From the IMG/VR virus record IMGVR_UViG_3300045988_117858, positions 16,865 to 80,864 of that record: a stretch of 64,000 nucleotides of DNA. The stretch is one strand, 5' to 3'. The DNA comes from a virus. Below the pieces are notes generated by a model that ran no database searches, was not told where the DNA came from, and saw only the letters and a list, made by a program, of their open reading frames with translations. A program made the translations under genes and the position numbers. Shown here one piece after another: positions 27,795 to 30,097 of this stretch (position 1 is the first letter of the stretch; each line of letters begins with the position of its first letter).

Positions 27795-28631
27795 ATGATT
27801 AGTATTAATGGAGTCCCAGTTGTTCCAGAATCTTTTCCAGATGGAACGCAAAAAATTGATTTTTCGTTAGGTGTGATATCTCAAGAAATCATAGAAAACA
27901 AGACAGTGTATATCACATGGTTATATGAGTCAGATCAAGAGTTGTTTTCTTTGTTGTGTATTTCTAAAAATATTAAAGAACATTTTCCGTGGTTACAACA
28001 AGCATTAGTGATGCCGTATATACCAAATGCAAGATTTGACAGAGTAAAAGAGCCAAGCGAATGCTTTACATTAAAATATTTTGCAGAAATTATTAATAGT
28101 CTGGGATTTGTACGAGTTATTGTAACTGATCCACATTCCGATGTATCTACTGCATTGATTGATCATGTAGAAGTAATTCGTGGAGCATCATATATCACAC
28201 AAACTTGCTGCAAAGTCCTTAAAGCAGAGTCATCAAGAAATCTTGTAATTTATTTTCCAGATAGCGGATCACTAAAAAGATATTCTGAATTTGTATCAGA
28301 TGATTATCCGATTGTCTATGGAATTAAAAATCGTGATTGGAAGACAGGAGAAATTCTTGGTATTGAGATTCATGGAGATACAGATAAATTAGATGAGAAT
28401 ACAGCAATTCTAATGATTGATGATATTTGTAGTAAGGGTGGCACATTCTATTATGGATCAAAAGAATTAAACAAATACGGTTGTAAAGATATGTATTTAT
28501 ACGTTAGTCACTGTGAAAATACAATTCTTGATGGCGAATTATTAAAAGAAGATAGTTTGTTTAAAAAAGTGTATACGACACGTAGTATTTTTACAAAAGA
28601 ACATGAGAAAGTTGAGGTGTTAGATTTATGA
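27795..28631 (+). CDS. divergent ribose-phosphate pyrophosphokinase (Prs) homolog, candidate ADP-ribose pyrophosphokinase (Adps-like)
   Basis: MPYIPNARFDR in place of the Prs signature IPYFGYARQDR; VIVTDPHSD (Prs DLHA region); PRPP-binding-loop-like AILMIDDICSKGGT; stop overlaps next start (ATGA). Confidence 0.65.
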   Translation: MISINGVPVVPESFPDGTQKIDFSLGVISQEIIENKTVYITWLYESDQELFSLLCISKNIKEHFPWLQQALVMPYIPNARFDRVKEPSECFTLKYFAEIINSLGFVRVIVTDPHSDVSTALIDHVEVIRGASYITQTCCKVLKAESSRNLVIYFPDSGSLKRYSEFVSDDYPIVYGIKNRDWKTGEILGIEIHGDTDKLDENTAILMIDDICSKGGTFYYGSKELNKYGCKDMYLYVSHCENTILDGELLKEDSLFKKVYTTRSIFTKEHEKVEVLDL

Positions 28632-30097
28632 AACAGACAAATCCAATGTTATTAATTGATTTTTATAAAGCAGTTCATGCTGAAATGTTACCAAAAGGTA
28701 TTACAAAATCTGTTTCTTATTTTACTCCACGTATGAGCAGAGTAAAACGATGGAATGAAGTAGCCATGTTTGGATTACAAGGATTCATTAAAGAGTATTT
28801 GGTCGATTATTTTAATGAGTATTTTTTCTTTGAATATAGAAACAAAGCAATTGGTACTTATAAGACAGTAATGGATGCAACTCTTGGAAAAGGTACATAT
28901 GGATTACAGAAAATTGAAGATTTATATGATCTTGGCTATCTTCCGATTGAGATTAAGGCTCTTCCTGAAGGAACTTTAGTACCAATGCATGTGCCGATGT
29001 TTAGTATTGAGAATACTCACAAAGATTTTGCATGGCTACCACAGGCATTAGAAAGTTTAATTTCCGCAGAAATGTGGCATCCGATGATCGCTGCAACTGT
29101 CGGGCATACATATAGACAGATCGTTAATAAGTTTTATGAAATGACTTGCGATGACAATGCCGTAAAAGCTAGAGCATTAGGAGCTTTTGATTTTCGTGGA
29201 GAAGAGTGTTTGCAGTCTGCGGTTAAAGCAGGTGCAGGATGGTGTTTGTCATTCTTAAATACTGCAACAGTGCCAACAATTCCATATTTAGAGAGAAATT
29301 ATAACTGTGATTGTACGAAAGAACCAGTTGCTTTTGGTAGTCCGTCTACTGAGCATTCGGTTATGTGTAGTAATTATGCGATTGACGGAGATGAAGAGAC
29401 TCTGATTAAAAGATTGCTAACAGATATTTACCCAAATACAAGCTTCTCCGCAGTGTTAGATTCTTATGATTATTGGAATGTTGTAGAGAATATTCTTCCA
29501 AAACTCAAGAATGAGATCATGAATCACAATGGATGTTTTCTTGTAAGAGGGGATTCAGGAGATTGTGTAGATGTAGTAACCAGAACGGTATTCAAGTTAT
29601 GGGAAGAGTTTGGCGGAACTACGAATAGTAAAGGATATAAAGTATTAGATCCTCATGTAAAATCAATTTATGGAGACTCAATTACAGTGCAGAGATGTGA
29701 GCAGATTTATGACATCTTAGAGAAGAATGGATTCGCAGCAAGCAATGTCGCACTTGGCGTAGGATCATTCTCATTCCAGTGTATCGAAGAAGATGGAGTT
29801 TTGAAGCCATTTACAAGAGATACATTCAGTAGCTGTATCAAAGCAACGTATTGTGAGATTGATGGTAAACCATATCCAATTTTTAAGAATCCGAAAGATG
29901 GTGGATTTAAGAAATCTCAGAGAGGTTTATGTCATGTCTATAAAGGATCAGACGGTAAATTGACATTTAAAGATGGATATACTTCAGAAAATCTTCCAAT
30001 GAATAATCTGCTTGAGACGGTATTTAGAGACGGTAAATTAGTAAAAGAACAGTCATTACAGGAAATCAGAAGAGTATTAAACGAAGGAGAATTTTAA
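28628..30097 (+). CDS. nadV: nicotinamide phosphoribosyltransferase family protein (NadV/NAMPT homolog; possibly Namat-type)
   Basis: NPMLLIDFYKAVHAEMLPKGITKSVSYFTPR, LPIEIKALPEGTLVP, FRDGKLVKEQSLQEIRRVL align with NAMPT-family hallmarks. Confidence 0.85.
   Translation: MKQTNPMLLIDFYKAVHAEMLPKGITKSVSYFTPRMSRVKRWNEVAMFGLQGFIKEYLVDYFNEYFFFEYRNKAIGTYKTVMDATLGKGTYGLQKIEDLYDLGYLPIEIKALPEGTLVPMHVPMFSIENTHKDFAWLPQALESLISAEMWHPMIAATVGHTYRQIVNKFYEMTCDDNAVKARALGAFDFRGEECLQSAVKAGAGWCLSFLNTATVPTIPYLERNYNCDCTKEPVAFGSPSTEHSVMCSNYAIDGDEETLIKRLLTDIYPNTSFSAVLDSYDYWNVVENILPKLKNEIMNHNGCFLVRGDSGDCVDVVTRTVFKLWEEFGGTTNSKGYKVLDPHVKSIYGDSITVQRCEQIYDILEKNGFAASNVALGVGSFSFQCIEEDGVLKPFTRDTFSSCIKATYCEIDGKPYPIFKNPKDGGFKKSQRGLCHVYKGSDGKLTFKDGYTSENLPMNNLLETVFRDGKLVKEQSLQEIRRVLNEGEF

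Follow-up and report, generated by a model that had tools for sequence, protein, structure and literature searches.

What can a phage make with a gene that resembles a ribose-phosphate pyrophosphokinase when that gene is translationally coupled to a member of the NAMPT family? The question is raised by a stretch of 64,000 nucleotides (hereafter the window) from the IMG/VR virus record IMGVR_UViG_3300045988_117858, where the two open reading frames (ORFs) lie on the plus strand at 27795-28631 (278 aa) and 28628-30097 (489 aa), as the original prediction had them. That prediction assigned the pair to NAD+ reconstitution pathway 1 (NARP1), a recently discovered phage strategy against immunity that depletes nicotinamide adenine dinucleotide (NAD+), so far defined as two genes using nicotinamide. 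The relatedness of the pair to the NARP1 proteins Adps, an ADP-ribose pyrophosphokinase, and Namat stands; its completeness does not, since the pair is the middle of a four-gene operon that begins with a PncA-like gene and ends with nadE. These flanking genes, unreported in the original prediction, are integral to the system. We consider it probable that the four genes together form an operon for NAD+ reconstitution, namely a deamidated, nicotinate-using variant of NARP1. Its parts are as follows.

27229..27780, plus strand: gene for a PncA-type, nicotinamidase-like protein of the isochorismatase family (183 aa; Pfam Isochorismatase, 3e-21)
27795..28631, plus strand: gene for a homolog of Adps-type ADP-ribose pyrophosphokinases (278 aa; by comparison with SPbetaL1 Adps)
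28628..30097, plus strand: gene for a Namat-derived transferase with a remodelled base pocket (489 aa; by comparison with Namat 9w5x/9w5w)
28628..28631, plus strand: ATGA stop/start overlap between the Adps-like and Namat-like genes, read from the sequence
29264..29266, plus strand: codon GCA for Ala213, at the site of SPbetaL1 Namat Asp215 and human NAMPT Asp219 (HMMER alignment to 9w5x)
29345..29347, plus strand: codon TCT for Ser240, at the site of SPbetaL1 Namat Ala242 (alignment column)
29762..29821, plus strand: modified selectivity-clamp helix motif, GSFSFQCIEEDGVLKPFTRD, which is the canonical GSXfXfXfTRD plus a 9-aa insertion
30115..30885, plus strand: gene for an NH3-dependent NAD+ synthetase, NadE (256 aa; Pfam NAD_synthase, 3.5e-57)

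The four genes are tightly packed. The PncA-like ORF stops 14 nt upstream of the Adps-like start, the overlap noted originally between the two central genes is real, and nadE starts 17 nt downstream of the Namat-like stop. The operon is probably co-transcribed, a conclusion drawn from these tiny gaps and the overlap, because a scan of 26000-33600 for promoters and terminators returned hits at chance level (28 found vs 29.6 expected).

By ancestry, the NAMPT-family protein is a Namat, as originally proposed. It matches phrog_448 at 2e-158, as well as the Pfam families NAPRTase and NAMPT_N, and scores 389 bits against Namat (9w5x/9w5w), 316 against H. ducreyi NadV and ~172 against human or bacterial Nampt. 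Its AlphaFold model (predicted local distance difference test, pLDDT, 92; predicted template modelling score, pTM, 0.91) has Namat 9w5x as its best Foldseek match, with a template modelling (TM) score of 0.93. Residue contacts were checked against the description of Namat in Lan et al. (PMC12774641). The ribose, phosphate and catalytic contacts are unchanged, and the Nampt-like core (Asp13, Tyr15, Phe189, Arg192, His245, Arg306, Asp308, Gly360, Asp361, Thr398, Arg399, Asp400) is kept in full, both in the window protein and in its clade. Where the proposed identity fails is the canonical base pocket: the nicotinamide-binding residues Asp215 and Ala242 are replaced by Ala213 and Ser240. The protein also matches an NCBIfam model named 'nicotinate phosphoribosyltransferase' (NF006629, 437 bits). 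We rejected this name as a sign of nicotinate use, and give it no weight, because on that model SPbetaL1 Namat, a validated enzyme that uses nicotinamide, reaches 594 bits.

In the crystal structure of Namat, Asp215 hydrogen-bonds nicotinamide and Ala242 is another nicotinamide contact; the D215A mutation reduces activity 8-fold (PMC12774641). Asp219 of human NAMPT defines base specificity (PMC7096376), with D219S switching substrate affinity and D219A losing activity (PMC4919578, table 2). Among the 150 nearest representatives of the family, clustered at 50% identity, the residues at positions 215 and 242 co-vary almost perfectly, being either Asp with Ala or one of Ala/Ser/Val with one of Ser/Gly/Thr, and about 50 of the 150 are of the second, non-Asp type. 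Position 215 is Ala or Ser in every homolog from the four-gene module and Asp (rarely Glu) in every classical Namat. Indeed, when 62 Asp-type and 28 non-Asp sequences from a non-redundant set were compared over ~490 aligned positions, these were the two columns without any residue common to both types, and the Ala242 column is Ala in all 62 of the former vs Ser in all 28 of the latter. The next-ranked differing columns (185/187, 213, 239/240, 304/307) flank pocket residues, and all other NAD+ contacts are conserved in both types. In a rough neighbour-joining (NJ) tree without bootstrap, all non-Asp sequences fall into one clade that lies inside Namat. We therefore rejected repeated, independent origins of the Asp-to-Ala switch, which probably happened once.

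The residue switch is accompanied by a change in gene content. We compared ~290 loci: 79 from IMG/VR found with the window enzyme, 52 from IMG/VR found with SPbetaL1 Namat, 80 from an alignment-based metagenome scan, and 80 from GTDB, the last being the best 80 of 429 stretches recovered with a 5-sequence alignment. Asp-type loci carry Adps, with PncA or NadE in 0 of ~105, whereas nearly every non-Asp locus has a PncA-like gene and NadE, usually in the order PncA-Adps-Namat-NadE. After clustering at 70% and requiring a flank of at least 2.5 kb on each side, all 25 Asp-type clusters have Adps and lack PncA and NadE, and all nine non-Asp clusters have PncA, Adps and NadE. The same context recurs in a basal non-Asp sub-clade (L134-L144) and at 56/62 GTDB genome loci. 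Within the loci compared, the PncA-like gene co-occurs exclusively with non-Asp Namat-like genes, and a nadE directly downstream of the Namat-like gene is conserved in the four-gene type alone. What is informative here is that the linkage is kept down to ~40% identity, through changes in gene order and in different environments. IMG/VR scans with the single representatives P0153 and P0163 returned no useful context for non-Asp enzymes with a canonical clamp.

The first gene of the operon encodes, by its sequence features, a divergent member of the nicotinamidase family. Its nearest relatives in the PDB are all nicotinamidases or pyrazinamidases (1ilw, 3pl1, 3o90), and it has the Asp-Lys-Cys triad and the Asp-x-His...His metal site of nicotinamidases. 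These residues, Asp8/Lys98/Cys134 and Asp46-x-His48...His65, are invariant in 79 module homologs (Asp8 in 78/79, with one gap). The protein scores 35.5 bits on the NCBIfam equivalog NF008623, below the cutoff of 174, and its PHROGs family, 19305, is annotated 'unknown function'. Among close relatives in IMG/VR (L002-L029, L060, L066, L070) the module is a mosaic: the Namat-like gene is 94-99% identical to that of the window, but identity is either 98-99% or no more than 64-68% for the PncA-like gene, and 71, 84, 90 or 96-99% for the Adps-like gene. Such mixed identities point to allele replacement by recombination.

At the other end of the operon, NadE passes TIGR00552 with 190 bits (cutoff 63.65) and carries the SGGxDS PP-loop as SGGKDS at 30214. 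Some close relatives (L002, L011, L017, L019, L022 and others) have an extra 0.4-1 kb between the Namat-like gene and nadE, with NadE starting at 6870-7451 rather than 6488. In the operon of Pseudoruminococcus massiliensis (L284, 8491-10437), the synthetase is a 648-aa glutamine-dependent NadE with CN_hydrolase and NAD_synthase domains; the phage form is short and NH3-dependent. No enzyme of the intervening adenylyltransferase type was found. The Nmnat/NadD-type (H/T)xGH motif is absent from every frame of the window, CTP_transf_like had no match among the window ORFs of at least 100 aa scanned with full tables, and for the eight ORFs at 50683-63756 no NadD or Nmnat stood among the matches listed (25 of 43 families). 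NARP2, which pairs the NAMPT homolog with Nmnat and has no Adps, is therefore unsupported, as originally argued: an Adps-type partner is present and no Nmnat was found in the window.

The identification of the Prs homolog as an Adps has likewise held up. Measured against the experimentally validated SPbetaL1 and FADO operons and E. coli prs, it aligns over its full length with SPbetaL1 Adps at 35.8% identity (155 bits, 8e-51) vs 24% (48 bits) for E. coli Prs, a bit score roughly three times closer to the validated SPbetaL1/FADO Adps than to the E. coli enzyme. It matches phrog_619 ('ribose-phosphate pyrophosphokinase') at 6.9e-67, and falls far under the cutoffs of all equivalog models. On TIGR01251 (cutoff 113) it scores 88 bits (5e-25), where validated Adps proteins also remain below the cutoff (106 and 96.5 bits) and E. 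coli Prs reaches 423. The peptides singled out originally, MPYIPNARFDR and MIDDICSKGGT, are both in the 278-aa translation. Motifs common to the protein and SPbetaL1 Adps include FTLKY, PHSDV, FPDxGxxKRYS, an HxEN insertion and the active-site Lys162. The K162A mutation abolishes Adps activity, and Lys162 is conserved in 82/82 Adps of the four-gene type. Further, the 77 classical Adps have 22 positions with a conservation of at least 90%, 21 of which are equally conserved in these 82, and the window gene adjoins a Namat homolog through the ATGA overlap, as do 97% of its clade. Nothing in these comparisons suggests a change of function in this partner.

Evidence on the donor comes from the adenine clamp of Namat. 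The window protein keeps Arg38 (=R40) and Phe381 (=F392), equivalents of the two clamp residues whose double mutation does most damage. In the selectivity-clamp loop (SCL), which has a stacking Arg, Lys or Tyr in its third position, the window sequence MSRVK aligns Arg38 with Arg40. The selectivity-clamp helix (SCH) is not the intact 11-residue motif: position 3 is still Phe, position 7 is Cys, the 9-aa insertion follows, and the equivalent of Tyr396 is lost. The AlphaFold model predicts this insertion as an ordered beta-hairpin (strands 385-388 and 391-394, pLDDT ~90). A new aromatic residue stands directly before TRD in 33/49 non-Asp representatives vs 1/94 of the Asp type. Members of the basal non-Asp sub-clade combine Ala215/Ser242 with an intact clamp, GSYTYQYNTRD, which argues that the lineage still uses ADP-ribose pyrophosphate (ADPR-PP). 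Insertions in this motif also occur elsewhere: some classical Namats (P0158, P0199, P0225) have intein-like insertions of ~300 aa exactly inside the SCH motif (GS[FY]C...SHNTYQ[MY][NV]TRD). Many other family representatives are 550-900 aa long, with the match split near residues 318-325.

Taken in order, the genes would describe a complete route. It would set in once NAD+ has been split into ADP-ribose (ADPR) plus nicotinamide, an event for which Thoeris, SIR2 or TIR-type NADase immunity, among others, could be responsible. The PncA-like nicotinamidase would convert nicotinamide to nicotinate and NH3, and the Adps homolog would convert ADPR and ATP to ADPR-PP and AMP. The Namat-derived enzyme would then join nicotinate and ADPR-PP into nicotinic acid adenine dinucleotide (NaAD), releasing pyrophosphate (PPi), without nicotinic acid mononucleotide (NaMN) or NadD. 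Finally, NadE would turn NaAD, ATP and NH3 into NAD+. The original account was right that the pair is related to Adps and Namat, and is neither Prs/NadV nor NARP2. Its proposed reaction, ADPR-PP plus nicotinamide giving NAD+ directly, is probably wrong in both the base and the last step, because the pocket has lost Asp215 and the pair is embedded with PncA and NadE.

The operon is also found in bacterial chromosomes. The best 80 of the 429 GTDB stretches encode enzymes 74-79% identical to that of the window, mostly in Lachnospiraceae and other Clostridia; two of the sources are the isolates Pseudoruminococcus massiliensis and 'Bacterium 0.1xD8-71', and Ruminococcaceae are also among the hosts. 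Chromosomes of gut Clostridia commonly carry the four-gene operon. The phage genes that flank the module in the window have no homologs at any of the 80 GTDB loci, where the neighbours are, for example, agrB, asd and an esterase in P. massiliensis, or msrA and dus at L136, on a contig of 611 kb. At 65/80 genome loci the chromosomal operons have a fifth gene, which encodes an NrtR-type regulator (NUDIX plus NrtR winged helix). NrtR also stands beside 7/11 basal non-Asp metagenome loci and 27/69 Asp-type metagenome loci; at viral loci it was found in 0/132 (IMG/VR), and the window has none. Most simply, the phage operon is a regulator-less version shared with hosts by horizontal transfer.

The regulator and the order of genes both bear on the proposed chemistry. 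NrtR binds upstream of prs-nadV operons, and ADPR has been proposed as its anti-repressor (Rodionov et al. 2008, PMC2330246); here, too, the effector is likely to be ADPR. C. acetobutylicum has the operon nrtR-pncA-pncB-nadD-nadE (PMC2330246). The Adps-like and Namat-like pair stands at the position of pncB-nadD, which suggests that it covers the segment from nicotinate to NaAD.

The surroundings of the module in the window are those of a phage, here one that infects gut bacteria: a dense, single-strand region with Bro-N/ANT, integrase, sigma-like factors, DNA polymerase III alpha and a RecD-like helicase. Near-identical relatives occur on IMG/VR contigs of ~160 kb. About 10 kb downstream of the module lies a further gene relevant to immunity, whose match suggests that the phage may also counter Thoeris signalling.

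40258-40569, plus strand: ORF for a Tad2-like (Thoeris anti-defence 2) protein (103 aa; PF11195, 30.5 bits, gathering score 25)

Several other ORFs, all on the plus strand, surround these genes. Upstream of the module are a 689-aa ORF (24193-26262; phrog_1735, 1e-263, unknown function, no Pfam match) and a 129-aa ORF (26283-26672; phrog_2018). Relatives of both (41-64% identity) are again found next to the NAD module at distant IMG/VR loci, in some cases on its downstream instead of its upstream side. Two genes downstream of nadE is a 486-aa SPFH/flotillin-like ORF (31286-32746); at a few distant loci (L042, L048, L054, L072) weak homologs of it (28-29% identity) come after the module. Two ORFs resemble nucleoside 2-deoxyribosyltransferases, one at 40874-41287, whose Nuc_deoxyri_tr2 match is weak and falls short of the gathering score, the other at 45515-45997 (Nuc_deoxyrib_tr, 30.2 bits). 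A cluster of three ORFs encodes a tyrosine integrase (17028-17978), a metallophosphoesterase (17975-18721) and, slightly further on, a PemK/MazF-like toxin (19154-19663), which may mean a temperate phage or the presence of a toxin-antitoxin-like element.

We speculate that the Namat-like enzyme is a nicotinate ADP-ribosyltransferase (nicotinate + ADPR-PP -> NaAD + PPi) that defines a four-enzyme, deamidated NARP1 bypassing PncB and NadD, and that this is a widespread, NrtR/ADPR-regulated recycling route of gut Clostridia which phages captured without its repressor and turned against NADase immunity. In this full form the proposal is about evenly balanced between right and wrong. The counter-defence role is suggested by the NARP1 precedent, the need for free ADPR, the loss of the repressor in viruses and the Tad2-like gene. 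Several points weigh against the proposal. Base and donor specificity are read from two residues and from gene context. The donor preference of the window's clade may differ from that of classical Namat, given the loss of Tyr396 and the inserted 9-aa hairpin, and the clamp alone does not confer use of ADPR-PP (Lan et al., NAR 2026; PMC12774641). The route costs an extra ATP, for which no advantage is explained. Host NadD is presumably available, leaving room for a route through phosphoribosyl pyrophosphate (PRPP) and NaMN, and the search for NadD or Nmnat covered 64 kb of a phage genome of ~160 kb. Three basal loci have no NadE within their flanks. Because the non-Asp type is monophyletic, Fisher p-values overstate the independence of the loci, and the association with PncA and NadE could partly reflect shared descent.

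The room left by host NadD would be filled by a PRPP-dependent booster of Preiss-Handler salvage, in which the Prs-like protein makes PRPP, the NAMPT-like protein makes NaMN from nicotinate, host NadD and phage NadE complete the synthesis, and ADPR is not used. NadD is near-universal in bacteria, so that a phage lacking it does not settle the matter; PncA and NadE belong to the classical Preiss-Handler set, and the switch in the base pocket fits nicotinate whatever the donor. Namat is also able to use PRPP in vitro, and the SCH clamp of the window's clade is disrupted by its insertion. This explanation nevertheless has to accommodate a Prs-like protein of the Adps type, when the validated SPbetaL1 Adps gave no product in a ribose-5-phosphate/PRPP assay (10.1101/2024.02.11.579819). 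R40 and F392 are kept, basal non-Asp members combine an intact adenine clamp with PncA and NadE, and in NrtR operons the pair replaces not one but both of pncB and nadD (PMC2330246). We regard a PRPP-dependent booster as unlikely.

Alternatively, the operon may be an auxiliary metabolic acquisition from the host that raises the supply of NAD+ during replication, with no specific role in counter-defence. This rival concerns purpose, not mechanism; its chemistry may be that of the deamidated NARP1, and the two overlap. Copies 74-79% identical sit in ordinary Lachnospiraceae and Ruminococcaceae chromosomal contexts under NrtR, and chromosomal NARP1 has been discussed as housekeeping (PMC12774641). 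Yet the pathway cannot run without free ADPR, a product of NAD+ cleavage, and during infection by Bas63 no ADPR-PP appeared unless a defence NADase was present. The phage's own Tad2-like anti-Thoeris gene and the consistent loss of the repressor from viral copies, as expected for constitutive deployment, also speak against a purely metabolic purpose, which we judge quite unlikely. The least likely of the readings considered is an ordinary NARP1, in which Adps and Namat rebuild NAD+ from ADPR and nicotinamide, and the PncA-like protein and NadE are mere neighbours acting via host PncB and NadD. Homology to validated Adps and Namat, translational coupling and the intact catalytic core would all be expected of it, and accessory genes such as RyDEP are known at NARP1 loci (10.64898/2026.05.28.727677). 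However, Asp215 is naturally Ala or Ser across the whole clade, and residues around the base pocket have changed in compensation; a nicotinamidase encoded by the phage would use up the very substrate that such a pathway needs; and PncA and NadE are confined to non-Asp loci among those compared.

The proposed deamidated NARP1 shares features with several known systems. Like the NARP1 of Bas63, SPbetaL1 and FADO (Osterman et al. 2024; Lan et al., NAR 2026), it has Adps immediately upstream of, and coupled to, a Namat-family gene; it keeps Lys162 of Adps, the catalytic His/Arg/Asp of Namat and the clamp residues Arg40 and Phe392, its closest structure is Namat, and it lies in a phage with another anti-Thoeris gene. 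Where NARP1 consists of two genes, it has four, the additional ones encoding a nicotinamidase-like protein and NadE, and its transferase differs at Asp215, at Ala242 and in the SCH motif; nicotinate is predicted as the base and NaAD as the product, which would still have to be amidated. Preiss-Handler salvage operons share its logic of deamidating the base, building the dinucleotide and amidating it again, with PncA first, NadE last and, in chromosomal copies, NrtR. They differ in having PncB and NadD where the module has Adps and the Namat-like enzyme, which are predicted to take the ADP-ribosyl moiety from ADPR, not from PRPP and ATP. With NARP2 and the KVP40 pair NadV and NatV (Nampt and Nmnat), the module shares the NAMPT-family fold and a predicted, phage-encoded function in NAD+ salvage; it differs in that no Nmnat was found in the 64-kb window and its enzyme groups with Namat and has an Adps partner. 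The NrtR-regulated prs-nadV operons of gamma-proteobacteria (Shewanella, Acinetobacter) resemble it as chromosomal Prs-like and NadV-like pairs beside NrtR. These operons, unlike the four-gene module, are without PncA and NadE, as are the NrtR-linked bacterial loci of the Asp type, which have an Adps-like gene.

We found no literature linking NARP1, Namat or ADPR-PP to NadE, nicotinamidase, nicotinate or NaAD, although coverage of subscription journals was incomplete. A broad survey of viral NAD+/ADP-ribose systems included NadV, NadM and NadR, but not NadE or PncA. Consequently, a deamidated variant of NARP1 has apparently been undescribed so far. If our reading is true, the operon would contribute a new enzymatic reaction and a new intermediate, with NaAD formed directly from ADPR-PP. 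It would also define a sister clade, comprising about one third of the 150 nearest representatives, in which the pocket has been rebuilt away from nicotinamide and nicotinamidase and NadE are obligatory partners. Tools that call any pair of Prs-like and NadV-like genes NARP1 would then conflate two chemistries, and the Asp215/Ala242 pair would provide a simple sequence rule for separating both types. Finally, phage counter-defence would be connected to an NrtR-bearing operon of abundant human and animal gut Clostridia, which would suggest that direct recycling of ADPR is part of normal NAD+ homeostasis in these bacteria.

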